Assembly (NCBI GenBank): GCA_044222185.1
Contig: JBGANV010000006.1
Coordinates: forward strand, 128,001-192,000
Length of the DNA: 64,000 nucleotides
Source: Planctomycetota bacterium
GTDB taxonomy: Bacteria > Planctomycetota > GCA-002687715 > CAIWVZ01
Reading direction: 5' to 3'
A program made the position numbers and the translations under genes. Of this stretch, positions 35,378 to 48,526 are shown piece by piece (the stretch's first letter is position 1; every line of letters starts with the position of its first letter). A model generated the notes under the pieces. That model had not been told where the DNA came from. It searched no databases and saw nothing but the letters and a program-made list of their open reading frames with translations.

Positions 35378-35708
35378 GATCGGTCTCGCACATCCCCCGC
35401 GCGGCGAGGGCGGCGATGGTACCACGGCTCGAATCGGCCCGGATTTGCCCGGCTCGGGGGCCTTCGCGGCGCCCTCGAGCACCGCAGAGGCGCGCCTCGG
35501 GTCATCTTTCGTCGGTCATAACTATCGTACAGCAGCCAGATTAGGCTCCGAATCTCCGGCGCCGCCCACGTTCGCGTGAGCAAAAAAAATCGAGCGTGAA
35601 GTTTTCCTTCATGGCTGGGTTCAGGCGAGCCGATCAGTGGTCCAGCGACGGCCGCCTCGGCGTCCGGCGCGAAGAGAAGGGAACGGGCCGGTGGTTCTTG
35701 GTGATGCA

Positions 35709-35852
35709 GACACCGAGGGCCGCAAACCGGTCGACCTCGCGGGCGACACACCCGCGTGGTCATGGGGAAAACGACTCCGACGCAACGCTTCATCGAGTCG
35801 CGAACAACTCGTCAGTGTCAAGGAGAGGTCTCCCAGGACCTCTCCTTTTTTT
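35709..35852 (+). ncRNA. Candidate orphan structured RNA
   Basis: Nested stems GACAC/GTGTC, CGAG/CTCG, GACC-CGCGGG/CCCGCG-GGTC and CGACTC/GAGTCG directly followed by an intrinsic terminator; no credible + strand CDS upstream. Confidence 0.4.
35820..35852 (+). terminator. Rho-independent terminator
   Basis: AAGGAGAGGTC-TCCCAG-GACCTCTCCTT followed by a T-run (7 T). Confidence 0.8.
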
Positions 35853-35921
35853 GTTCGGGCCGCGACGGCGCCCGTCGCACGCGGTCTCGGCGCTCGACGG
35901 GAGTCCACGCGCCTCCGCCCA

Positions 35922-38144
35922 TCACAGCTCGTCCGCCCCCATGTCGTTGTACAGCGCCGGTGGCGCACCATTGACATAGGGGCGCGCCTGAAGGTCGAAG
36001 TCGTCGACGATGTGTCCGATCGGGGGGTGGGCTCCGACGAGATTCACGCACGGCGATGTCGCGAGGATGTGGAGATCTCCCACGGACGCGTTCGCGAATA
36101 GCGGGTCGGCATTGATGTTGCCCGACGAGCCGAAGTAGCTCGCGTTGCAGTTGTAGAGGATCGACGTCGTGAAGTTCACGTCCACGATGTCGGCGGCAGG
36201 GTTCCCGCCAGCGTTGAACTTCGAGATGTTCCCGAACGCCACCGTGCCGACCCACGGCGGCATGTACCAGATCGTGTATTGGATCACGTCGCGCATCACG
36301 ATGCCCGCCACCGTCTGACCCACGATGCTGTTGTGGATGATGCCGGTGTTGCTTCGCACGTCCGGCAGGACCTCGTTCAGGAAGAGCGTTCGGCTTCGCG
36401 TGTGTTCGTTGATCCCGATCTGCTGGGATTCGAGCGTCGCCGTCGCGTTGTAGATGAAGTTGTTCCAGGCAAACGGCTGGGCGATCACCACGTCGTTTGC
36501 GAGATCGTCGGTTGGACTGAAGACGCGGGTGCGCGCCGGGCCCGTGGGCGGGAATCCCGTGACGTAGAGGTTGACCGTCGACATGGACGTGAAGTCCACG
36601 CCATTCACCGCGTTGCCGTGGATGCGGTTGCCCTTCACGCCCGGGTTGCCGCTGCCGTCGACGAGGCGTGCCGTGACGCCGTGACGGCCGTTCACGAAGA
36701 TCTCCGACTCCTGCACCGAGGAGTTGTTCCGAGTTTCGCGCATCGCTCCGGCGAAGTACCCGTTGTTCGAGAGCGGGAGGTACCAGTCGGACGAGACATA
36801 CACGCCGTCACGGGCGTTCGCCGTGATTCCCACGTTGGGATGTCCTGCGCTCGTGCCGCTCGCGTCGCACGAGTTCACACGCATGGCGAGCTGCCCGAAG
36901 TCGTACGTCCGTAGCGACACGCCGTGGCCGTCTTCCGGATAGATCGAGAACAGCGGTGCGAGCGTTCCGTTCGTCACGTACGAGCAATCGGTGATGACGG
37001 GGAAGAGGAAGTGCGGACTCATGGCTCCGTAGAAGGGGTTCAGGAGGAACTGACTCCAATACCCGTACTCGAACCACTGCTCGAACCAGAACTCGCCCGG
37101 GAGGAGCCCCAGGTGCGGCATGCCCTGTTCACCCGCGAACATCATCGTGCCGTCGAAGCCGCACTTCTCGAACCAGCACTGCTGGATCGTGAACGTGGCG
37201 TCCGTCATGCGCCCGAGCACGTCGACGTAGACCCCGTACAGCATGCCGTTCCGGCCGGGAAGCGACGTGTCCGCATTCCCCAGGAATTCGTTCTCGAGGA
37301 TGAGCGGCTGCAGCGTTCCCGTCTGGAAGATCTCCATGTAGATGCCCGCATCCGTGAAGACCGGCGAGCCCGTGATCACGTTGGTCGTGTCGCTGCTGAA
37401 TTTGCAGGTGTCGACTTGACCGGTGATCGCGCCGCCGCTGGCGATGTAGTAGCGGATGTGGTCTGCGAGGTTCGTGATCCCGCCGGCCCTCCCGCCACCG
37501 ATCCAGGTGGGCTGTGGGACGTTGGCGAATCGGCAGTCCGTCGTGAGCGCGTCGATCGTCGTCACCGGGCTCAGCGGGCTGAACGTCATGCCGACGGTCG
37601 TCTGGTTGAATCCGATCTGGCGGAACGTGGCCCCGACGGTTCCCGACGTGGTCGGGAACCATTCGATGCCCGTCGCGAAGGCCACGATCTTGATGCCCTT
37701 CAGCGTCGTGTTGCTCCGCGTGTGTGAGTCCGTGGGGTTCATGCGAAACGCCGTCGCATTCGTTCCGGCGGCAGCGCCGCTGAACACGGCCGGAGCCCGG
37801 CGCCCGAACGGATCCAGATCCGAGTTGGCGACGTCCCAGAAGATGTTCACGTTTCGGGGGATGACGATGGCGCCGGCCGTGCTCCAGTTCTCGACGGAGT
37901 CGCCGTGAACCACGACCTGGTTGATCGGTCCCAGGCGCCCGCGGATCGCGATGTCCTGGAGGGCATTCGGGCTGACGAGGTTGTGGAAGGCGATGGCCGA
38001 CCGCAGCGTGTTGAACGTCGTGCCGGATGGCGTGGCGAGGACGTCGACGGTCAACCGTGGCGGAGACTGGGCGGGAGCCTGGGTGAAGCACAACGAGAGG
38101 ACGAGTGCGCTCGCATGGAGCGCGGTGGCGAACGACCGTTTCAT
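35922..38144 (-). CDS. Secreted right-handed beta-helix protein
   Basis: GGAGG RBS; signal MKRSFATALHASALVLSLCFTQAPA-Q; Asn/Gly ladder repeats (NRIHGNAVNGV, NNFIYN); C-terminal NINADPLF...DLHI...SPC...DMGADE. Confidence 0.82.
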   Translation of the reverse strand: MKRSFATALHASALVLSLCFTQAPAQSPPRLTVDVLATPSGTTFNTLRSAIAFHNLVSPNALQDIAIRGRLGPINQVVVHGDSVENWSTAGAIVIPRNVNIFWDVANSDLDPFGRRAPAVFSGAAAGTNATAFRMNPTDSHTRSNTTLKGIKIVAFATGIEWFPTTSGTVGATFRQIGFNQTTVGMTFSPLSPVTTIDALTTDCRFANVPQPTWIGGGRAGGITNLADHIRYYIASGGAITGQVDTCKFSSDTTNVITGSPVFTDAGIYMEIFQTGTLQPLILENEFLGNADTSLPGRNGMLYGVYVDVLGRMTDATFTIQQCWFEKCGFDGTMMFAGEQGMPHLGLLPGEFWFEQWFEYGYWSQFLLNPFYGAMSPHFLFPVITDCSYVTNGTLAPLFSIYPEDGHGVSLRTYDFGQLAMRVNSCDASGTSAGHPNVGITANARDGVYVSSDWYLPLSNNGYFAGAMRETRNNSSVQESEIFVNGRHGVTARLVDGSGNPGVKGNRIHGNAVNGVDFTSMSTVNLYVTGFPPTGPARTRVFSPTDDLANDVVIAQPFAWNNFIYNATATLESQQIGINEHTRSRTLFLNEVLPDVRSNTGIIHNSIVGQTVAGIVMRDVIQYTIWYMPPWVGTVAFGNISKFNAGGNPAADIVDVNFTTSILYNCNASYFGSSGNINADPLFANASVGDLHILATSPCVNLVGAHPPIGHIVDDFDLQARPYVNGAPPALYNDMGADEL

Positions 38145-38243
38145 GGATAGGCACCTCCGGGCGGGTTTCCAGGGGATCACCATCGACGGGGAGTCGATGG
38201 ATCGACCGGTGCGCCCGCGGTGGGTGCGCCGCCCGATGGCGCC

Positions 38244-38274
38244 TACTTGGGTGGAACTCCTCGCGGATCGGACA
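38244..38274 (-). promoter_or_regulatory. Candidate ECF promoter copy 1 (TGTCCG-N19-CAAGTA)
   Basis: Minus strand GCTGTCCGATCCGCGAGGAGTTCCACCCAAGTA, 100 nt upstream of the 38144 start. Confidence 0.7.
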
Positions 38275-38313
38275 GCAATCCGAACGCGGTCGTGTCCGGG
38301 AGGGCCTGAGACC

Positions 38314-38895
38314 TCACTCCACGAAGAGCGGCGGCGGCCCGAGCTTCGTCACGCGCGTAATGAGCCGCTGCCATCGCTTCTCGCATGCATCGGCGCTGAT
38401 GCCGAGGAGGTGCGCGGCCTCCGTGTGCGAGAGCCCTTCCAGCCCTCGATAGATGAGGAGCCGGCGGTCGTCCTCCTCGAGCACGCCAAGCTGGACGATG
38501 AACGCCGCCAGGTTCTCGTCGCGTGCGACGCGGCGGCTGACGCTGGTCACGTCGGCGGGAATCTCGGCGACGCGATCCCGGCTGGAGTCGTCCGGTCGCG
38601 CGGCACGCCGGCCACGGCGGGTCGCGTCCGCGAGGATCTCCTTCAGCACGAAGTTCGCCACGCCGAAGAGCCAGCGGCGGAAACTGCCCCGCGCCGGGTC
38701 GAACGCGGAGAACTTCCGGTACGCCCGGAAGCAGACCTCCTGCACCAGGTCCTCGGGTTCGAGCACGCCCTGGAGCGAACGTCGCACGCGGAGCACTGCC
38801 CACAGGTGGAGCGCGGGGGCGACGTCCTCGAAGAGTGCGCCGAACTTCGATGAGTCCAGGGACTGGGCGTCGGAGGACGACGGGGCGGAGGACAT
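38314..38895 (-). CDS. ECF sigma factor (Ser/Thr kinase-associated type)
   Basis: EPEDLVQEV, FDPARGSFRRWLFGVA, linker DVTSVSRRVARDE, sigma4 YRGLEGLSHTEAAHLLG; divergent from the kinase. Confidence 0.92.
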   Translation of the reverse strand: MSSAPSSSDAQSLDSSKFGALFEDVAPALHLWAVLRVRRSLQGVLEPEDLVQEVCFRAYRKFSAFDPARGSFRRWLFGVANFVLKEILADATRRGRRAARPDDSSRDRVAEIPADVTSVSRRVARDENLAAFIVQLGVLEEDDRRLLIYRGLEGLSHTEAAHLLGISADACEKRWQRLITRVTKLGPPPLFVE

Positions 38896-38930
38896 CGCGG
38901 GAGTCTATCAGGCGGTTTCGAGCGGAGGGC

Positions 38931-38960
38931 TGTCCGAATCGCACGCCGACCTCCCAAGTA
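38931..38960 (+). promoter_or_regulatory. Candidate ECF promoter copy 2 (TGTCCG-N18-CAAGTA)
   Basis: GCTGTCCGAATCGCACGCCGACCTCCCAAGTATGCTC, 14 nt upstream of kinase ATG 38975. Confidence 0.7.
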
Positions 38961-38974
38961 TGCTCACGAGCGTC

Positions 38975-41479
38975 ATGGACGACGACGACCTCGACGACCG
39001 CCTCGATGTGGATGCACTCGAACGACTGCTCGACGGGAGTGGTGACGGCTCGAGCGGAGGTCTCGAGGCCTTCGCTGCCATGGGGGACGACCACGCCGCG
39101 GCCGCGCGGCGCGTTCGCCGTGCGAAGGAGGACCGCTCGGAGTCGGGAGACGGGGATGCGACGCCGCGGTTCGGTCGCTTCCGGCTTCTCGCCGAGCTTG
39201 GTTGCGGCGGACAAGGAGAGGTGTGGCTCGCCGAAGACGGAGAACTGAACCGTCGCGTGGCGCTGAAGATCCTCCACCGGGGCTTCGGCGCGCATGAAGA
39301 CGCGTTGCTGCGCTTCCGTCGCGAAGCGGAGGCGGCGTCGCGTCTGGACCATCCCGGACTGTGTGGCGTGTTCGACATCGGCCGCTCCGACAGCCGAGCC
39401 TGGATGGCGATGCGGTACGTGGAGGGACTCACGCTGGCGCAGCGCCTCGCGCAGGAGAAAGGCCTTCCGACGCGCGCGGCGATCGACGAGTGGACCCGGG
39501 TCGTCGAGGAAGCGTCGCGCGCCGTGCATGCCGCCCACGAGGCTGGAGTCGTGCACCGCGATTTGAAGCCGTCGAACGTCGTCATCGACAAGGATGGACA
39601 CCCCGTGGTGCTCGACTTCGGGCTGGCGCGGCTCACGGACGCGGGTGAAATCACGCTGACTGCACCCGGCGCCGTCGTGGGCACTCCGTCCTACATGGCG
39701 CCCGAGCGTCTCGATGGCGCGGCCGGCGTCGACCGCCGCGCCGACGTGTATGCGCTGGGTGCGATCCTCTACCGAGCGTTGACGGGGCGCGCGCCACGCG
39801 AGGGGAGCACCTTCGCCGCCGTGCGCGAGCACGCATTCGATGCGATCACTCCGCCTCGGCGGCTGAATGCCGCGGTGCCACGCGCCTTGGAGGCTGCGAC
39901 GCTGGCCGCGCTGAGTGCCGACCTCGCGCATCGGTATGCGACGGCCCTCGACCTGGCGGAGGACCTGCGGCGCGCTCGTCTCGGCGAGCCCGTCCTCGCC
40001 ACGCGCCCGGGGCCGATCGCGCGGCTTTCGTCCTGGGTTCGCCGCAACCGCGCGCTGGCCTTCGCCATCCTCGGTCTCATCGTGGCGCTGATCCTGGCGC
40101 TCGCGGCGACGCGGACGGCGATTCGAGAGGCGCGCACCGGCGCTCACGCGTTGCAGCAACGAGACCAGGCGGCCGACCTCCTCGCCCTTCGCGCCATGCT
40201 CGCGCGCGAGCGGACGCTCTACCCGATCGAACCCGGCCTCGTCGAACCGGCGACGCGCTGGCTCGACGAGGCCGCGCCCCTCATCGCGCGCGCGCCGCTC
40301 CATCGCGAGGCCCGCGCGGAGATCCGCGCCGGCGCCGGCGCCGCGCCGGACGATCCCAATCCCCGGTTCGCGCGTCGCGAAGATGCGTACTTCGATGAGG
40401 TCCTGGGCGACGTCCTCTCCTCGATCGATCGCCTGGCGGCTGCGTCGGCCGAGGTCGCGCGTCGCCGCGATCGGGCCAGCACGGTGCGCGCGCGCTCGCT
40501 GGAAGGGGATCAGGCCGGGGCATGGGCGGCGGCTGCTGCGCGCGTCGCCGCAAAGCCCGAATATGACGGCCTCGTGCTCACGCCGCAGCTGGGCCTCGTT
40601 CCGCTCGGACCGGATCCCGCGAGCGGGTACGAGGAGTTCGCCCACGTGGAGACGGGCGACGTCCCGGGCGCTGGCCCCAGCGGGAAGCGCCCGCCACTCG
40701 ACGTCGCCGATGCGGTGATCCTGGTTCTTCTGCCCGGCGGTTCGTTCGTGATGGGCGCGGATGCCGACGATCCGTTCCTGGACAAGACGTACGAGATTCC
40801 CGCATTCCCGGTCAAGCTCGCGCCGTTCTTCCTCGGGAAGTACGAGTTGACCCAGGCGCAGTGGCTGCGGATGTCCGGCGGACCGAACCCGTCGTACTAC
40901 TTCCCAGGCACGGACCACGGTCGGGAGAGCGCTCCGTCGGAGGAGATCACTCTGCTCCATCCCGCGGAGTCCATGTCGTGGCCGGCAGCCGTCGAGATCC
41001 TGGCGCGCGTCGGACTCATGCTCCCCACGGAAGCCCAGTGGGAATACGCATGTCGCGCGGGAACGACGACGCCCTGGTCGGCCGGCCGCGAGCGCTCCGA
41101 TTGCGCGGGTTTCTGCAACGTCGCGGGAAGCGAGAGCCCGCGGTCGCGCTGGCTCTTCGATTACGAGCCCGCGTTCAACGACCGCTACAAGCTCCACACG
41201 CCCATAGGCCTGTATCGTCCAAACCCGTTCGGCCTCCATGACATGCACGGCAACGTAGGGGAGTGGTGTCGGGATGCGCTGCTTCGGCGGTATGCCGATG
41301 CCCGCCCGGCCCCAGGCGACGGTCTGTTGACGCCCCGACGGCTCGACGGAAACCGGGTCATTCGTGGCGGGTCATTCCAACTCGACCTCAACTACTGCCG
41401 ATCGTCGGCGCGGACGTTCATGCCCGAGGACGCGCCTCGGCGGGATTTGGGAGTCCGGGTCTCGGCCCCACTGCGCTGA
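38975..41479 (+). CDS. Hanks-type Ser/Thr kinase fused to a formylglycine-generating-enzyme (SUMF1)-like domain
   Basis: LGCGGQGEV, VALK, HRDLKPSN, DFGLAR, GTPSYMAPE, DVYALG; TM helix; LPTEAQWEYACRAG, PNPFGLHDMHGNVGEWC, RGGSF. Confidence 0.95.
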   Translation: MDDDDLDDRLDVDALERLLDGSGDGSSGGLEAFAAMGDDHAAAARRVRRAKEDRSESGDGDATPRFGRFRLLAELGCGGQGEVWLAEDGELNRRVALKILHRGFGAHEDALLRFRREAEAASRLDHPGLCGVFDIGRSDSRAWMAMRYVEGLTLAQRLAQEKGLPTRAAIDEWTRVVEEASRAVHAAHEAGVVHRDLKPSNVVIDKDGHPVVLDFGLARLTDAGEITLTAPGAVVGTPSYMAPERLDGAAGVDRRADVYALGAILYRALTGRAPREGSTFAAVREHAFDAITPPRRLNAAVPRALEAATLAALSADLAHRYATALDLAEDLRRARLGEPVLATRPGPIARLSSWVRRNRALAFAILGLIVALILALAATRTAIREARTGAHALQQRDQAADLLALRAMLARERTLYPIEPGLVEPATRWLDEAAPLIARAPLHREARAEIRAGAGAAPDDPNPRFARREDAYFDEVLGDVLSSIDRLAAASAEVARRRDRASTVRARSLEGDQAGAWAAAAARVAAKPEYDGLVLTPQLGLVPLGPDPASGYEEFAHVETGDVPGAGPSGKRPPLDVADAVILVLLPGGSFVMGADADDPFLDKTYEIPAFPVKLAPFFLGKYELTQAQWLRMSGGPNPSYYFPGTDHGRESAPSEEITLLHPAESMSWPAAVEILARVGLMLPTEAQWEYACRAGTTTPWSAGRERSDCAGFCNVAGSESPRSRWLFDYEPAFNDRYKLHTPIGLYRPNPFGLHDMHGNVGEWCRDALLRRYADARPAPGDGLLTPRRLDGNRVIRGGSFQLDLNYCRSSARTFMPEDAPRRDLGVRVSAPLR

Positions 41480-41510
41480 CGCCGATTCTCGTCGGATTTC
41501 TCTTGGGTCG

Positions 41511-41541
41511 TGTCCGCCACGGGCTGGTCGTTCATCAAGTA
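41511..41541 (+). promoter_or_regulatory. Candidate ECF promoter copy 3 (TGTCCG-N19-CAAGTA)
   Basis: TGTCCGCCACGGGCTGGTCGTTCATCAAGTATGCTC, ~70 nt upstream of ATG 41610. Confidence 0.7.
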
Positions 41542-41609
41542 TGCTCCGGCGCAACGTCGTCCCGGGCCGTCAGCCCCCGATCGGTGCCCCGGCGAGGCGC
41601 AGTGTTTCC

Positions 41610-43262
41610 ATGACCACGAATCCATCGTTGTGCGTCGCCGTGTTTCTCACGATCGCGTCTTTGCTCGTGGCGCAGGACGACATCAAGCTGCCGTTCTATG
41701 GCGTGTTCGGACCCGAGTCGCCAGAGCTCACATCCGCTGGTCTGGGAACGGGCGACATCGTCAAGCGGCAGACGAGCGATGGACAGGCCGCGTCGCCGGT
41801 GCTTCGCGGAGCGGCCGCGGCATTCGCGTTTCCTCCGCAGGTCGATCCGGCGTCGATCGAGATCAATTCGATCGCGTATGCGAACGACGTCTTTTCCGCG
41901 TGGGGACCGTGGGCTCAGCTTCCGACGGCCGTCAAGCTCCGCCGGACGACCATCTCGTTCACCGTCACGCCGGGCTCGTCCGTGACCTATCCCACGGGTA
42001 GCGCCGTTCCCATCTGTTCCGGTGCGCCCGAGTCGGCGCAGATCTACTCCGTCATCACGAACACGGCGGCTCCCGGCGACGGTACGCAGTCGTTCTCCGC
42101 GGGCGCCGCCGTCGCGGACGACTGCGGCTTGGGCACGACCACCGCGGGAAAGCCCACGGTGCTCGCCGCACTGGCCGTCGAGCCTCGCGATTCCGCGACC
42201 GGCGGCGTGCCGGTCTACTTCACGTTGAGCCGCGCGTGCTGTGCGCGACTTCGCCAGGACCCCTCGCTGCCCTATGCGAATGCGCACCCGTGCGACATCT
42301 GGTTTGCCGATGGGATCCAACCACCGGTCATCATCTGCGACATGGACCAGCGGGGACTGCTCGCTCCGGACGACTCCATCGACGCGCTCGCGATGTCGAA
42401 CGCGGGCAACTGCGTCTTCAGCCTCGACGCCGCGTCGCCGACCGTCGTGGGCCACGCGCGCTGGGTCGACGCGTGGTATCCGTCCGCGACGATCGCGGGA
42501 TCGCTGGACCATCTCTCGACGATCATCGATCAGAACACGTTGATCGGCTTCGTGCCGTCGAGTGTCACCGCACTCGAAACCTGGATCACACCGCCGCCCA
42601 ACTACGCGTTCGGCAGCCTCTTCCTCTGGTTCGATCCGTATTGGCTCGGGCTCGAAGGCCAGGGTTCCACTTCGGACGACCTGAACGGCATCGAGATCGT
42701 CGATCCGCCCCAGATGGAAGGGTACGGCGGCTCGATGCCGCTTCGCGGGTCGCCGGGCGATTCGGCTCAGCAGCGTCTGTGTCTCTTTGCGCAGGGAGTT
42801 GCCGGCGACGGCGGGGGCGTCGTACCGGTCCCGGCGCGCGTCGGCGAGCCGATCCACATCCAAGTCGTGCTCCCTGGCGTCATCAACGGTCGACCGCTGC
42901 TCAATTGGGTTCTGTGGATCCGCACCGGCCGCTCGAGCGAGAACACCTTCGGCCTCGTCACGCCGCCAGGCGGAAACACGGCGCCGTTCGCCATGTTCTT
43001 CAATCCGTTCCTCGGGCCGGCGATGCCGGTGTTCGGGACGAGGTCGGGCGTGAACTATGCACTGGGACCCGCGGGGTTGCTGCCGACCGGGACGCTCGCG
43101 AATGCGATGGCGATCCCGAGCGGATTCGCCGCCGGCTCCTACACCCTGCAGATCCTGGCCGTGACGACGGCGCCGAGTGGGGCGTACCCCCTGAAGGGCT
43201 ACTCGTCGAATTGCGTGCAGTTGGACGTCTCGCCGGTCGGGGCGCACATCGCCCTGAATTGA
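41610..43262 (+). CDS. Secreted hypothetical protein
   Basis: Signal MTTNPSLCVAVFLTIASLLVA-Q; repeated (G)L-x-DD-(I/L)-(D/N)-AL blade-like motifs; C-terminal ...AAGSYTLQI...SNCVQLDV. Confidence 0.78.
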   Translation: MTTNPSLCVAVFLTIASLLVAQDDIKLPFYGVFGPESPELTSAGLGTGDIVKRQTSDGQAASPVLRGAAAAFAFPPQVDPASIEINSIAYANDVFSAWGPWAQLPTAVKLRRTTISFTVTPGSSVTYPTGSAVPICSGAPESAQIYSVITNTAAPGDGTQSFSAGAAVADDCGLGTTTAGKPTVLAALAVEPRDSATGGVPVYFTLSRACCARLRQDPSLPYANAHPCDIWFADGIQPPVIICDMDQRGLLAPDDSIDALAMSNAGNCVFSLDAASPTVVGHARWVDAWYPSATIAGSLDHLSTIIDQNTLIGFVPSSVTALETWITPPPNYAFGSLFLWFDPYWLGLEGQGSTSDDLNGIEIVDPPQMEGYGGSMPLRGSPGDSAQQRLCLFAQGVAGDGGGVVPVPARVGEPIHIQVVLPGVINGRPLLNWVLWIRTGRSSENTFGLVTPPGGNTAPFAMFFNPFLGPAMPVFGTRSGVNYALGPAGLLPTGTLANAMAIPSGFAAGSYTLQILAVTTAPSGAYPLKGYSSNCVQLDVSPVGAHIALN

Positions 43263-43409
43263 CGCGCGGCGGTCGTTCGCCCGCAGCGACGCTCAGACTC
43301 GGTTCCGTGAAGGGTTCATGTAGTCGGCCCACCCGATCGGCGCGTCTTCGCTTATGCTGCGGGCGGCTCGCTGCGCGTCGCAGCGCGCGGCGACGAAGGG
43401 GGCTGTGTC

Positions 43410-45899
43410 ATGGCGATGCGTGCGGGGCTGGGCGTCATCGCGGTCGTGGCGATCGCCGCGGGCGTGTGGTTCCTGCTCGGTGGCGCGGAGCAAGCGCCGC
43501 GGACGCTCGCGAAGCCGGTCGGTGAGCCCGCGGCTGTCGTTGGCGATACGGCGTCGCGACCGGCACCAACTTCGCGCGCCACCGCGTCCGCGATCGTCCC
43601 CAATCCGCTCGTGGATCGCGCGGCCGACGCCGCGGCCGCTCGCGCGGGGCGGTGCGAGTTCCGCATCGTCCAGCCGGACGGAACGCCGGCCTCAGCTGCG
43701 CGATGCGTGCTCGGGAGGAAGCGCGAGCGATTGGGGTTTGCCGACTGCGACGCGAACGGCGTCGCGGCGTTCACGCCGTCGGACGGGGAGGCGTGGCTGC
43801 TCGTGAATCCGCCGGCGCGGCCGAGGGCCCGCTACGTGGTCGTTCCCAGCGCGGGGCGGCACGTGATCGATTTGCCTGACGGGGTTGCCGTTCGCGGGCA
43901 CGTCGTCGTGGACGGGCGCACTCCGGACGAACCGATCGAGCTTCGTCTCAGCGGCGCCGAGGTTCCGCTCGATGGCCCCGTCTTCGAGGGTTCGTACCTG
44001 GCGGCGTTCGGGCCGGATGCGCCGCCAACGATCCGGCCCTGGATGTGCGCGACGACAGCCCCGGACGGTTCGTTCACGTTCTTCGGCATCCCGAATAGCG
44101 CGCGGCAGCTCCACGTGGATACGGTGTCCGATCACTTCGACGTGCCGCCGCAGGTCGCCGCGCGGACGCATCTCGCGAACGTGATTCCTCTGGATCCGTC
44201 GATCGCCGACAACCTCGTCGAACTCACGCGCATGCCCGTTTGGACCGGCCGCATCGTGCGACCCACGGGAGAGCCGGTCGCCGACGCCGTCGTCTCGACG
44301 ACGAGGATCTCTCCGACGTCGCGCGCGAACCTCTTCCGGACGAAATCCGACGGACGGTTCTCGGTCCCAGTGAATCCGCCGAGAGTCGTCGGCGACGGGG
44401 GGCAGATGCGTCGGGACGTCAAGGGGTTCCTCTGGTGCGCCGAGTCGCCGACGTCACCCGTGCACCAGACGACGCACGGGGTCGACGGGGCTCGCGTTCG
44501 TGACGTCGGAGACGTCGTGCTCCCGGCGTCCGCGCGCATCGCATTGCGCCTGCGCGATGCGGCCGGCGCACCGATCGAAGGCGGTCGCGCGGTGCGACCC
44601 GACGGATTCAACTTCCCGGTCCAGGGCCTGAAGTCCGATGGGGCCGGACGCCTCGAGATCTCGATCGACAGATTCCCCAGCGAGGTGGTCGTCGGGGCTG
44701 CGGGCTTTCACGACCAGATCGTCGACATCGCTGGCGGAACCGCCTCGCCGATCGAAGTGACGCTGGTTCGTGGCGGCCACCTCGACGTCGATGTGCGTCG
44801 ACGCGATGGCGCGCCGGAGCGACGGGTGACGCTCGAACTTTTGGGACCTCGGAAGGCCTTCGAGAGCGAGCGCCTCGGGATCGCACGTTTCCTCGCGTCT
44901 GGATTCTCCACCACACCCCGCGACGGCAAGCTCTCGGGCGAGCCTGACGCGGACGGTCGGTTGACCTTCGCAGGCCTCGTGGAGAATTCCACGTACACCG
45001 TCACCGCCAGTGATTCCTTCGGCGCGGTGCTCGCAACGCAGGAGGTGACGTTGACCGCGGAGTCGCGCCCGACCGCGCTCCTCACCGTCGCGCTCGGATC
45101 GCGGAAATTCGCCTGCCGCGTCTTCGATGCGAAGGGCGTCGCGAGGAAGGACGCATCCATTCGGCTCTCGAACCCGAGCTTCGGTGGGCCCTATGGGTTG
45201 ATCGGCTCCGGCGTGAACCTCACGGCGAATGACGACGGCGTTTACCGCGCGTCGGACATCAGCCTCGACACCGTCGACCTCGACGTCGCGTGTCCGGGGT
45301 GCGGGCGGCTCTTCCACGCGGGCATCGACTTGACCGGTGACGACGAGATCCGCGACATCCACCTCTCCGACCCGCGTACCGTCGTATTCGAGGTCGTGGA
45401 TCCTGCTGGTGCGAGCGTCGCCTTCGAGCAATTCGAGGCGAGCTTCGAGGGTCGTCCGCTTGGGTCCGGTGTGACGGTGAAGCGCCGCGAGGGCAAGGCA
45501 ACCGTCTCCGGCATCTCCGCCGGCAAGCTCAAGGTGCGCCTTCGCGTGGCGCGCACCGACTACGACTTCGAGTTCGACACGTCGCAGCCGACGCGGCGGA
45601 TCGTGCTCACGAATCCCGGACGGGTCCTCGTGCACGTCGATCCTCCCGTCGACCGCGAGCCGGGCGCACGGTGGATGATCGAACTGGTCCCCGAACAAGG
45701 CGGGGCGCGCTACTCGGACCTCGTGGCACGCCGGGCGTCCGATCCCACGGATCAACTCCAGTTCGGCAGTGTTCTTCCCGGCCGTTACACGGCTCGGCTC
45801 GTCCACCTCGTCGCGAACGTCTCGCTGGGTTCATCGCCCCCGATGACCGTCGACGTCGAATCCGGCAAGCAGGCCGAGGTCTCCGTGAAGCGGCCCTGA
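43410..45899 (+). CDS. Membrane-anchored carboxypeptidase regulatory-like repeat protein (paralog A)
   Basis: N-terminal TM and Ig-like repeats; collinear with 46040..48526. Confidence 0.85.
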   Translation: MAMRAGLGVIAVVAIAAGVWFLLGGAEQAPRTLAKPVGEPAAVVGDTASRPAPTSRATASAIVPNPLVDRAADAAAARAGRCEFRIVQPDGTPASAARCVLGRKRERLGFADCDANGVAAFTPSDGEAWLLVNPPARPRARYVVVPSAGRHVIDLPDGVAVRGHVVVDGRTPDEPIELRLSGAEVPLDGPVFEGSYLAAFGPDAPPTIRPWMCATTAPDGSFTFFGIPNSARQLHVDTVSDHFDVPPQVAARTHLANVIPLDPSIADNLVELTRMPVWTGRIVRPTGEPVADAVVSTTRISPTSRANLFRTKSDGRFSVPVNPPRVVGDGGQMRRDVKGFLWCAESPTSPVHQTTHGVDGARVRDVGDVVLPASARIALRLRDAAGAPIEGGRAVRPDGFNFPVQGLKSDGAGRLEISIDRFPSEVVVGAAGFHDQIVDIAGGTASPIEVTLVRGGHLDVDVRRRDGAPERRVTLELLGPRKAFESERLGIARFLASGFSTTPRDGKLSGEPDADGRLTFAGLVENSTYTVTASDSFGAVLATQEVTLTAESRPTALLTVALGSRKFACRVFDAKGVARKDASIRLSNPSFGGPYGLIGSGVNLTANDDGVYRASDISLDTVDLDVACPGCGRLFHAGIDLTGDDEIRDIHLSDPRTVVFEVVDPAGASVAFEQFEASFEGRPLGSGVTVKRREGKATVSGISAGKLKVRLRVARTDYDFEFDTSQPTRRIVLTNPGRVLVHVDPPVDREPGARWMIELVPEQGGARYSDLVARRASDPTDQLQFGSVLPGRYTARLVHLVANVSLGSSPPMTVDVESGKQAEVSVKRP

Positions 45900-46039
45900 C
45901 CGGGCGCATCCCATCGAACTGAGGCGCGCCGGTCGCCAGTCGCCGCCAGCGCTGAAAGTCGGCTTGATCGCGGGCTCTCGTGTATGTTGGTGTCGCCTCG
46001 CTGCGAATTGCGGCTGGCGGCGGACAAGGAGGCCATGTC

Positions 46040-48526
46040 ATGGCGATGCGCGTGAGCCTGGCAGTCGTTGCAGTCGTGGTCATCGCGGTCGGTGCGTGGT
46101 TTGCGCTCGGCGGCACGGAGCACGGACCGCAGACCCGCGCGCAACCGAGCGTCGAGCCCGCCGCGGTTCCGTTGGACGTGGAACCGCACCCCGTTCCCAC
46201 CTCCCGGTCTTCGGCAGGCGCCGTCACGGTGAATCCGATCGTCGATCGCTCAGCAGACGCGGCCGCCGTGCGCGCGGGTCGGTGTGAGTTCCGGGTCGTC
46301 CAGCCCGACGGGGCGCCGGCGGTCGGCGCCCAATGTGCACTTGGGCGGAAGAAGCTCTTGCGCGGGACGTCCGACTGTGATGCGAATGGCGTCGCGACGT
46401 TCGAGCCGTCGGAGGACGAAGCGTGGCTCATCGTCGTCGCGCCCACGCGGCCCATGGCCGGCTTCGTCGTCACGCCGCGCGCAGGGCGGCACGTGGTGGA
46501 TCTGCCCGACGGCGCCGTCGTTTGCGGCCACGTCACGGTCGACGGGCGACCGCCGCAGGAGCCGATCGTTCTCCGCCTCAGCGGTGGTGAGCCGCGGCTC
46601 GATGCCCCGATCTTCGAGGGATGGAACGGCGCACTGTTTGGACGCGACACGCCCCGCGTGATGGAGACGTCCTGTCGTGCGACGACCGCGCCCGACGGTT
46701 CGTTCGCGTTCTCTGGCGTTCCCAAGGACTACCGGGAACTTCACGTCGCGCCGCTCTCGGACTTTTTCGAAGTCCCGCTGCGCGTCGTAGAGCGCACCCA
46801 TCTCGTCAACGTCATCCCGGTCGACCCTGCGTCTCCGGACAACCTGATCGAGCTGACACGCGCTCCCGTGTGGACGGGGCGCGTCGTTCGTCCGACGGGC
46901 GAGCCGGTCGCCGGTGCGCTGGTGTCGACGGACATGATCATCGGACCGTCGCTCGACCACGTTATCCGGACGAAGGTCGACGGACGGTTTACCGTTCCCG
47001 TGCGCTTGCCGACCGTCGTCGGGGGCGCCGATGGGACGGGGAAGGTCCTGAGCGTGACTCTCTATTGTGCGGACTCGTTATCGGCCCCCGTGCATGGCAC
47101 GAAGCACATCAACGGCGCGACGCTCTCCCGAGACCTCGGCGACGTCGTCCTGCCCGCGCCGACCCGGATCACCCTGAGCGTGCGGGACGGCACGGGGTCG
47201 CCGATTGCAGGGGCCCGCGTGGGGCGACCTCGGGGACTCAGCATTCCGGTCCCCGTAGTGAAGTCCGATGCCGAGGGCCGGCTCGAGCTCCCGATGGACG
47301 AGTTCCCCGGTTCGTTGATCGTCGGTGCGGCAGGGTTTCACGACCTCAATGTCGAGATTCCGGAGGCGGTCACGGATCCCATCCCGCTGACCTTGCGACG
47401 TGGCGGGCACATCGACGTCGAGGTCCGCCGCCCCGATGGTGGTCCCGAGCGTCGCTACATGGTCGAGTTGGCTGGCTCACGAACGGCATTCGAAGACGGG
47501 GTTCTGGTGATTGCGCGCCACCTCGCTGGCGGGGCGAACAGCGGGCCCTTCGAGGGGAAGGCCACGGGATCGCCGAACGCCGAGGGCCAGATCACCTTCG
47601 CTGGCCTCGTGGACGGCTCGACGTTCACCGTCGACGCCGTCGACCCGTTCGGAACCAAGGTCGCGAGCCGAGACGTGGCGCTGTCGGCGGAGTCTCGGCC
47701 GACCGTGGTCCTGACCGTCTCTCCAGGGACGCGAAAGTTCGCGTGCCGCGTGTTCGACCTCAAAGGGGTGGCGCGGGCGGACGCGTCGGTTCTCCTGACG
47801 AAGCCGGGCGCGAAGGACGTCATGCGTGCCGGTAGGTTGTACGTCAAGGCGGATGTCGACGCCGTTTACCGTCAATCGGACATGGGCATCGATCGCGTGG
47901 ACGTCGAGGTGTCCTGCCAGGGGTGCGGGCGGCTCGTGCAGAACGGCATCGACCTCACCGACGACGAAGAGGTCCGCGACTTCCACCTCTCCGAAGCGCG
48001 CTCCGTCGAATTCGAGGTCGTGGACTCGAGCGGGGAGCCCGTCGTCTTCGAAGCCTTCGAGGCGAGCTACGAAGGGCACAGCCTCGCGTTCGGCGGCGTG
48101 CAGATCGTCCGCCGCGAGGGCAAGGCGACCGTCTCGGGAGTCTCTGCAGGCAAGCTCAACGTCCGCGTTCGCGTGGCGCGCACCGACCATGACTTCGAGT
48201 TCGACACGTCCCAGTCGAAGCAGAGGATCGTCCTCGACCGCCCAGGGCAGGTTCTCGTCCACGTCGATCCACCCATCGAGCGGAAGCCCGGCGAACGCTG
48301 GATGATCGAACTGGTCCGCAGCGAGGACAAGAAACGCTACTCGGACCTCGTCGCGCGGCGCGACTCCGATCCCACGGATCGGTTCGAGTTTCGCAGCGTT
48401 CTTCCCGGTCGCTACGCCGCCCGCCTCGTCCGGCTCGTCGAGAACCGCACGGACGGCTCCTCGTCCCCAGTCAGCGTCGACGTCGCATCCGGCAAGCAGG
48501 CCGAGGTCACGGTGAAGCGGCCGTGA
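46040..48526 (+). CDS. Membrane-anchored carboxypeptidase regulatory-like repeat protein (paralog B)
   Basis: AGGAGG RBS; MAMR start shared with paralog A; ends SGKQAEVTVKRP versus SGKQAEVSVKRP. Confidence 0.85.
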   Translation: MAMRVSLAVVAVVVIAVGAWFALGGTEHGPQTRAQPSVEPAAVPLDVEPHPVPTSRSSAGAVTVNPIVDRSADAAAVRAGRCEFRVVQPDGAPAVGAQCALGRKKLLRGTSDCDANGVATFEPSEDEAWLIVVAPTRPMAGFVVTPRAGRHVVDLPDGAVVCGHVTVDGRPPQEPIVLRLSGGEPRLDAPIFEGWNGALFGRDTPRVMETSCRATTAPDGSFAFSGVPKDYRELHVAPLSDFFEVPLRVVERTHLVNVIPVDPASPDNLIELTRAPVWTGRVVRPTGEPVAGALVSTDMIIGPSLDHVIRTKVDGRFTVPVRLPTVVGGADGTGKVLSVTLYCADSLSAPVHGTKHINGATLSRDLGDVVLPAPTRITLSVRDGTGSPIAGARVGRPRGLSIPVPVVKSDAEGRLELPMDEFPGSLIVGAAGFHDLNVEIPEAVTDPIPLTLRRGGHIDVEVRRPDGGPERRYMVELAGSRTAFEDGVLVIARHLAGGANSGPFEGKATGSPNAEGQITFAGLVDGSTFTVDAVDPFGTKVASRDVALSAESRPTVVLTVSPGTRKFACRVFDLKGVARADASVLLTKPGAKDVMRAGRLYVKADVDAVYRQSDMGIDRVDVEVSCQGCGRLVQNGIDLTDDEEVRDFHLSEARSVEFEVVDSSGEPVVFEAFEASYEGHSLAFGGVQIVRREGKATVSGVSAGKLNVRVRVARTDHDFEFDTSQSKQRIVLDRPGQVLVHVDPPIERKPGERWMIELVRSEDKKRYSDLVARRDSDPTDRFEFRSVLPGRYAARLVRLVENRTDGSSSPVSVDVASGKQAEVTVKRP

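Follow-up and report, generated by a model that had tools for sequence, protein, structure and literature searches.

What reads a short bipartite motif that stands three times around a gene for an extracytoplasmic function (ECF) sigma factor, and which genes would be governed through it? The question is raised by a stretch of 64,000 nucleotides (nt) from a Planctomycetota bacterium, called the window hereafter, in which the region 35922-43262 holds four genes, for a beta-helix-like protein, an ECF sigma factor, a Ser/Thr kinase and an orphan protein, together with three copies of TGTCCG-N18/19-CAAGTA. We consider it likely that this locus is a Ser/Thr-kinase-linked ECF sigma module and that the element serves as a promoter for RNA polymerase with this sigma factor, or a close paralog of it, bound.

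The genome assembly from which the window was taken (G000) comprises 7.08 Mb in 16 contigs with about 69% G+C, its nearest named relatives are uncultured Planctomycetota, and the same DNA is present in activated-sludge and bioreactor metagenomes. The features of the locus are as follows.

35922..38144, minus strand: gene of the beta-helix-like secreted protein, 740 aa from ATG 38144 (753 aa from 38183), with a signal-peptide-like N-terminus
38244..38274, minus strand: motif copy 1, TGTCCG-N19-CAAGTA, downstream of the sigma stop codon and 99 nt upstream of the beta-helix ATG 38144
38314..38895, minus strand: gene of the ECF sigma factor, 193 aa, with the Pfam domains Sigma70_ECF, Sigma70_r2 and Sigma70_r4_2
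38902..38910, minus strand: TGATAGACT, an extended -10-like element of the form TG-n-TAnnnT that ends 6 nt before the sigma ATG
38931..38960, plus strand: motif copy 2, TGTCCG-N18-CAAGTA, which ends 14 nt before ATG 38975 of the kinase gene and lies inside the 79-nt divergent gap between the sigma and kinase genes
38975..41479, plus strand: gene of the Hanks-type Ser/Thr kinase, 834 aa, in which a single transmembrane helix separates a cytoplasmic Pkinase domain from a C-terminal extracytoplasmic domain of the formylglycine-generating enzyme (FGE)-sulfatase fold
41476..41495, plus strand: weak hairpin that resembles a terminator and has a T-rich tail, at the stop codon of the kinase gene and just before motif copy 3
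41511..41541, plus strand: motif copy 3, TGTCCG-N19-CAAGTA, 32 nt past the kinase stop codon and 68 nt upstream of the orphan ATG 41610
41610..43262, plus strand: gene of the orphan secreted protein, 550 aa, N-terminus signal-peptide-like, without a match in Pfam or NCBIfam

These descriptions agree with a first, sequence-only reading of the same DNA, which had reported an ECF sigma factor, a kinase-FGE fusion and two secreted proteins that belong to no known family. As it had also said, no anti-sigma gene was found among the four genes by gene calls and by Pfam and NCBIfam scans.

The bipartite motif in the window and in related loci

The pattern TGTCCG-N17-20-CAAGTA had exactly three matches in the window and none in 100 dinucleotide-preserving shuffles, and each match faced a gene, as had been noticed from the letters of the sequence. 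The longer common strings noticed at the same time, GCTGTCCGA...CCCAAGTA in copies 1 and 2 and CAAGTATGCTC in copies 2 and 3, were present as well. The three copies are not duplications, since their spacers (19, 18 and 19 nt) bear no sequence resemblance to one another. The layout is that of an ECF-type promoter, with -35-like and -10-like halves, a spacer in the range of 16-19 nt and an orientation towards a gene shortly downstream; the distances from motif to start codon were 13-107 nt over all the sites. Copy 1 lies only 60 nt from the alternative in-frame ATG 38183 of the beta-helix gene, and the position of copy 2 predicts a very short leader for the kinase mRNA. The hairpin in front of copy 3 is weak on its own, since four terminator-like sites were found in the region against 3.2 expected. 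No Rfam family reached its gathering score in a scan of 35700-43600, and no match fell on the motif sites. Contigs from four sludge metagenomes carried the three motifs without differences where they covered the locus; these strains are about 99% identical and are hence uninformative on conservation.

When the whole assembly was searched, four exact matches to the same pattern were obtained, namely the three copies of the window and one at C1:1522791-1522819. The fourth lies in a paralogous locus (L021; G000 C1:1515233-1524559, L021 3230-12562), in which one ECF sigma gene lies between two genes for full-length FGE-kinases (identity to the window kinase 51% and 50%), and a homolog of the orphan stands directly behind each of them. 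Its sigma factor (C1:1519597-1520145) is the closest paralog of the window sigma, at 57% identity, and the fourth motif is 2.6 kb from it. This motif, TGTCCG-N17-CAAGTA, lies 15 nt past the stop codon of kinase 1 (the 51% identical one), with 93 nt left to the start codon of the orphan homolog. Between kinase 2 and the second orphan homolog, AGTCCG-N17-CAAGTA was found 107 nt before the ATG. One of the two kinase genes of L021 lies directly downstream of the sigma gene with a gap of 27 nt, and the two genes are probably co-transcribed. The occurrence of three copies within 3.3 kb, all of them non-coding and close to genes, together with a fourth at the corresponding position of the paralogous locus, is beyond chance.

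The conservation of the element outside this genome was followed in loci gathered by protein similarity to the orphan family, from 301 sampled genomes of the phylum and from a metagenome scan in which a five-row alignment yielded one locus. Eight such loci were compared: the window locus (W), the two kinase-orphan gaps of L021 (C1a and C1b), four loci from other genomes (G002, G007, G013 and G227) and the metagenome contig L078. In seven of the eight, the gap from kinase stop to orphan start contained the looser pattern GTCC[GC]-N17-19-CAA, in the following forms.

W: TGTCCG-N19-CAAGTA
C1a: TGTCCG-N17-CAAGTA
C1b: AGTCCG-N17-CAAGTA
G013: TGTCCG-N17-CAAAAG
G002: CGTCCG-N17-CAAGTG
G227: CGTCCC-N18-CAAGGA
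L078: TGTCCG-N17-CAAGTA (exact)

Four of the loci (G002, G007, G227 and L078) had no part in building the query, and three of these carry the element. In a further genome, G018, which was located by synteny and whose contig ends inside the downstream gene, TGTCCG-N17-CAACAG was found at the same place, 7 nt past the kinase stop codon. The -10-like half stands 40-107 nt before the start codon of the orphan-family gene across the loci, and the remaining intergenic sequence has diverged between them beyond recognition. All 11 sites listed keep the trinucleotide GTC in their -35-like half, and the -10-like half is CAAG(T) in nine of the 11, the others being CAACAG in G018, the only site with CAG, and CAAAAG in G013. 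The looser pattern has a background of 6.7e-5 per nt per strand in the window's genome, which corresponds to about 0.010 per 150-nt region; the eight loci are related to one another and do not count as independent trials. As the motif is syntenic in the paralogous locus and in the loci of the orphan family, far above this background, there is good in silico support for regarding it as a cognate ECF-type promoter. The earlier proposal that the motif is the promoter of this sigma lineage thus gains support from the same element standing after the kinase and before an orphan homolog in paralogous and related loci.

The sigma factor, its kinase and the secreted proteins

The sigma factor matched Sigma70_ECF (PF07638) with an E value of 2.2e-12 and 47.7 bits (cut-off 21.1), and Sigma70_r2 and Sigma70_r4_2 were also above their cut-offs; the score against NCBIfam TIGR02984 (Planctomycetaceae subfamily 1) was 76.7 bits, below the cut-off of 183.75. 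In an alignment of 13 sigma factors of this type, the acidic sigma2.2 signature ExxDxxQ was present in all, with EPEDLVQE in seven of them including the window sigma. The Thr and the second Ser of a TSxS stretch at the border between the linker and sigma4 were each kept in 12 of the 13, and the putative -35-reading helix of sigma4, KRWQ(R/H)L, was found throughout. The ordinary acidic sigma2.2 and the Ser/Thr linker stretch pointed out in the sequence-only reading hold in this alignment.

No copy of the motif was found upstream of the sigma gene. Instead, the element TGATAGACT would be a candidate housekeeping-type extended -10 promoter giving a leaderless sigma mRNA, and similar elements stand 7 nt before the sigma ATG in L021 (TGATAGTCT) and 9 nt before it in L078 (TGGTAAGTT). 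A sigma-70 consensus scan of the region called no site, and the TG-n-TAnnnT element was read by eye. The sigma gene is probably not autoregulated.

The pairing of sigma and kinase is kept in relatives. In the window's genome, 19 sigma genes of this type were found, and a Ser/Thr kinase match lay within 9 kb of all 19; kinases are abundant here (162 matching segments, about one per 70 kb), and the chance of such a neighbour is only about one in four. Many of the kinases near these sigma genes carry an FGE-type C-terminal part, a large expansion of sigma-kinase pairs. Relatives of the window sigma from named genomes gave 21 loci, mostly in metagenome-assembled genomes (MAGs) of Planctomycetota, and the five closest, at 42-49% identity, had no convincing motif. 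These five (L029-L033, on contigs of Planctomycetota and Brocadiaceae MAGs) have no TGTCCG...CAA site beside the sigma gene. The sigma and FGE-kinase genes are convergent in four of them, and in L029 the kinase gene lies about 1.5 kb upstream of the sigma gene on the opposite strand. Gene order therefore varies inside the same sigma family.

The extracytoplasmic part of the kinase has an FGE fold (PF03781, E 2.3e-34), with matches to solved FGEs down to an E value of 1.6e-17. The catalytic residues of FGE are a copper-binding Cys pair, C-x4-C, near the C-terminus. When the window kinase was aligned to a solved FGE, the enzyme had FLCHESYC where the kinase has FQLDLNYC, so that the first Cys is replaced by Leu; among six orthologous kinases the first Cys was kept in none and the second in one, the window kinase itself. 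Because the catalytic Cys pair is incomplete, the FGE-fold domain appears not to be an enzyme.

The closest sigma factor found, at 60% identity, is that of L078, and TGTCCG-N18-CAAGTC stands there 13 nt before the kinase ATG, comparable with copy 2 of the window (N18, 14 nt). The motif is absent upstream of both kinase genes of L021 and of those of G002, G018 and G013. These five genes have divergent gaps down to 23-50 nt in length, and TATAC-type -10-like strings are present instead in G013 and G018. A feedback of the sigma factor onto the kinase is plausible in the window locus and is not a family trait.

The orphan is the founding member of a small lineage-restricted family, which forms the conserved target gene behind the kinase. 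A four-member profile search found 51 representatives among 1.84 billion proteins, matches occurred in five of the 301 sampled genomes of the phylum, and none of 26 members matched Pfam; a word-index search returned the query itself only. The AlphaFold model of the orphan had a pLDDT of 82 and a pTM of 0.83. The fold searches were made with the whole model, the N-terminal 350 residues not being run separately, and no new fold is claimed: Foldseek against the PDB gave nothing at E <= 0.001, and VIA-align gave only Ig/FN3-like matches to residues ~375-545 (the C-terminal ~170 residues) with Z <= 7.3, in the range of generic matches. The orphan might serve as an extracellular partner, or a ligand-presenting co-sensor, of the dead FGE-fold ectodomain of the kinase, so that sigma, kinase and orphan would form an autocrine, self-amplifying loop of surface sensing. 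We regard this as a speculative idea that is probably wrong; if true, the logic of such signalling would be without a described precedent among ECF sigma factors. A complex prediction of the kinase ectodomain with the orphan scored 0.00, below the mark, which speaks neither for nor against binding. Behind the orphan gene, two tandem paralogous genes on the plus strand (43410-45899 and 45980-48526) encode large proteins that are 60% identical, one with a CarboxypepD_reg domain. They start after a gap of 147 nt with no obvious terminator between, and might be co-transcribed with the orphan gene; the pair is not kept in L021.

The beta-helix-like protein has a GGAGGTG ribosome-binding site upstream of ATG 38144 and scored 18.5 bits against Pfam Beta_helix, below the cut-off of 25.9. 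A single homolog was found among 5.8 billion proteins, 69% identical and with PF13229. In G002 (L022 2323-4728, minus strand) and G018 (L023 1588-3183, plus strand), a convergent gene ending in ...GF-stop stands at the 3' end of the sigma gene and no beta-helix gene is present, which makes the beta-helix target of the window a lineage-specific addition. Between the end of the beta-helix gene and its upstream neighbour, a strong 12-bp hairpin followed by TTTTTTTG on the plus strand (35820-35847) is most likely an intrinsic terminator; it gave a weak, sub-threshold Rfam match to sbrA (28.8 bits against 45). To call the two secreted proteins effectors, as had been done at first, is a guess.

A proposed circuit and the competing explanations

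The circuit that we propose starts with a sigma factor that would be made constitutively, as judged from the lack of a motif of its own and from the TG-n-TAnnnT element 6 nt before its ATG. The kinase would sense an extracytoplasmic ligand through its FGE-fold domain and phosphorylate the sigma factor, and this modification would switch the sigma factor on. The phosphosite would most likely lie in the conserved Thr/Ser stretch DVTSVSRR at the border of linker and sigma4 rather than in sigma2.2, because the acidic sigma2.2 is intact and because a linker site, T106, provides an analogy in EcfK. TGTCCG would be recognised by the conserved sigma4 helix (KRWQRL), and CAAG(T) by sigma2. The active holoenzyme would then recognise TGTCCG-N17-19-CAAG(TA) and raise the transcription of the kinase, orphan and beta-helix genes, the rise in kinase being a positive feedback in the window locus and in L078.

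Several observations weigh against this proposal. The G007 locus has no such element in its kinase-orphan gap. Only two of the seven kinase genes examined (those of W and L078) are preceded by the motif, so that the positive feedback through the kinase promoter, which the sequence-only reading had assumed, would hold for these two loci and not beyond them. The beta-helix target is kept in no related locus, which leaves copy 1 without comparative support. Spacer lengths of 17 to 19 nt make a wider range than is usual for ECF promoters, with 18-19 nt in the window and 17 nt at most related sites. Exact matches are also no guide by themselves: a reversed-pattern control had three matches in the same genome against four for the motif, and in 22 other genomes of the order the exact pattern occurred 0-2 times per genome and the control 0-4 times. 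In this census two genomes of one genus have one identical match in common.

The genome also offers other candidates on both sides of the sigma-promoter pairing. It encodes 18 paralogs of the sigma factor with a common sigma4 helix, any of which could read these promoters, and it contains further sites. TGTCCG-N17-19-CAAG has 37 matches, of which 12 are without codon periodicity, three in the window locus and L021 and about nine elsewhere (eight N17, one N18). At least seven of the nine lie upstream of signal-peptide-like proteins, and one (C4:207345) is beside a third sigma-kinase pair. The non-coding sites of the form TGTCCG-N17-(C/T)CAAG are

C2:305519(+), C6:177680(-), C4:207345(+), C4:93189(-), C7:798964(+), C14:120422(+), C6:716500(+), C12:9658(-)

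Several members of this class stand behind A/T-rich tracts, and the targets of the C2 and C6:177680 sites are paralogs of each other. The window promoters thus belong to a wider class. The regulon, called self-contained at first, may accordingly be a wider one or be open to cross-talk, given that L021 uses the same hexamers and further non-coding sites lie elsewhere.

The element could also be an ECF-type promoter read mainly by another, or by several, of the 18 kinase-linked paralogs, for example that on C1, with the window as one node of a common network. Identical TGTCCG and CAAGTA hexamers in the C1 locus, the sites elsewhere and the invariant -35-reading helix would all be expected then. 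Against this, the copies of the CAAGTA type are confined to the two closest paralogous loci (five of the seven genome-wide matches to GTCCG-N17-19-CAAGTA), the more distant paralog loci of the genome lack the motif, and the motif travels between genomes with the sigma-kinase-orphan block; we therefore hold this explanation to be rather unlikely, and yet the most serious of the competitors. The variation of the spacer by 2 nt, the lack of a motif at the sigma gene and the seemingly TATAC-type -10 elements of the G013 and G018 kinase genes would also fit an operator with two half-sites for a DNA-binding regulator, or another conserved feature, with different promoters driving the genes. The two halves show no relation to each other, be it as a direct or as an inverted repeat, the element is always turned towards the downstream gene at 13-107 nt from the start codon, it resembles published predictions of ECF -35 and -10 elements, and no regulator gene besides those of the sigma factor and kinase is kept in the block, all of which makes an operator improbable.

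The last possibility, a chance co-occurrence or a functionless remnant of local duplication of short GC-rich strings, draws on the genome-wide count, which is at the level of the reversed control; the copy number alone is indeed not beyond chance, because the two counts are alike. It is the arrangement of the copies, the syntenic fourth one included, and not their count that sets the motif apart. With three non-coding copies in 3.3 kb whose spacers are unrelated, and with the motif kept at the syntenic place in the loci of other genomes against the low background per region, an origin by chance or duplication is very hard to credit. A promoter read by this sigma factor or its close paralogs remains the explanation that we prefer.

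Comparison with known kinase-linked ECF sigma factors

Kinase-linked ECF groups are typically without anti-sigma factors (PMC7826278), and the window system is of this known kind. The nearest described pairs belong to ECF43 as defined by Casas-Pastor 2021 and Iyer 2020, namely EcfP/PknT of Vibrio parahaemolyticus and EcfK/PknS of Xanthomonas citri, in which a Sigma70_ECF sigma factor likewise stands beside a single-pass Hanks-type kinase with no anti-sigma factor. The promoter predicted for ECF43, with "GTC in -35 and CAG in -10" (PMC7826278 supplement), is close to TGTCCG...CAAG, and -35 elements of the TGTC type are listed for several other ECF groups (PMC7826278 supplement). The phosphosites of EcfK lie in the linker and include T106 (PMC13147305), which fits the conserved TSxS stretch found here as a candidate site.

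The window sigma differs from ECF43 in the feature that defines this group. In ECF43 the acidic DAED/DxxD of sigma2.2 is replaced by uncharged residues with a phospho-acceptor Thr (PMC13147305, PMC7826278 supplement), whereas the window sigma keeps the acidic sigma2.2 and is without an uncharged, Thr-containing switch of the QTTA type. As ExxDxxQ is intact in all 13 aligned sigma factors, the EcfP-type switch of ECF43 cannot apply. The ECF43 pairs are further set apart by their proteobacterial hosts, as against Planctomycetota here, and by a TPR ectodomain in place of the FGE fold; the window kinase gene, moreover, is read divergently.

Among Planctomycetota, the groups ECF59, ECF61, ECF62 and ECF217 (first named ECFSTK groups by Jogler et al. 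2012) resemble the window system in having a conserved neighbouring transmembrane kinase and no anti-sigma factor (PMC7826278 and its supplement), and differ, as judged from published descriptions, in their multi-transmembrane or WD40 kinase parts. The predicted promoter motifs of ECF61 and ECF62 are given as "not conserved", and for ECF59 only "TC in -35" is given (PMC7826278). Periplasmic FGE-domain kinases are common in Planctomycetota (PMC11032199) and have the same architecture as the window kinase; the survey that describes them makes no link to a sigma factor, promoter or target gene in the part available. The window kinase and its orthologs are unlike FGE enzymes in lacking the first Cys of the catalytic pair in six of six, with the second kept in one. 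No description of TGTCCG...CAAGTA was found in literature searches and in the part of the PMC7826278 supplement covered, Jogler et al. 2012 and Iyer et al. 2020 being outside this scope; the data of these two papers, among them a set of 1032 ECF43 members, could already contain planctomycetal sigma factors or the motif. Three points are new: one lineage now has a concrete promoter motif, the gene that follows the kinase belongs to a conserved family of targets, and the sigma gene seems not to control its own transcription.

Planctomycetota have many ECF sigma factors that are linked to kinases. None of these is known to have a promoter or regulon defined by experiment, and in the group descriptions consulted their promoter motifs are reported as not conserved. 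In the lineage described here, the target promoter can be read from synteny, as TGTCCG-N17-19-CAAG between kinase and orphan in a conserved block. The lack of a motif before the sigma gene fits the published remark that kinase-linked ECF groups are without conserved motifs derived from autoregulation (PMC7826278 supplement), and a sigma gene that is probably not autoregulated would explain why motif searches based on autoregulation miss these groups. The locus offers a clonable set of promoter, sigma factor and kinase for the study of phosphorylation-dependent sigma activation outside Proteobacteria, and the same set bears on activation through a linker site instead of a sigma2.2 switch and on what the FGE-fold ectodomains of such kinases sense.

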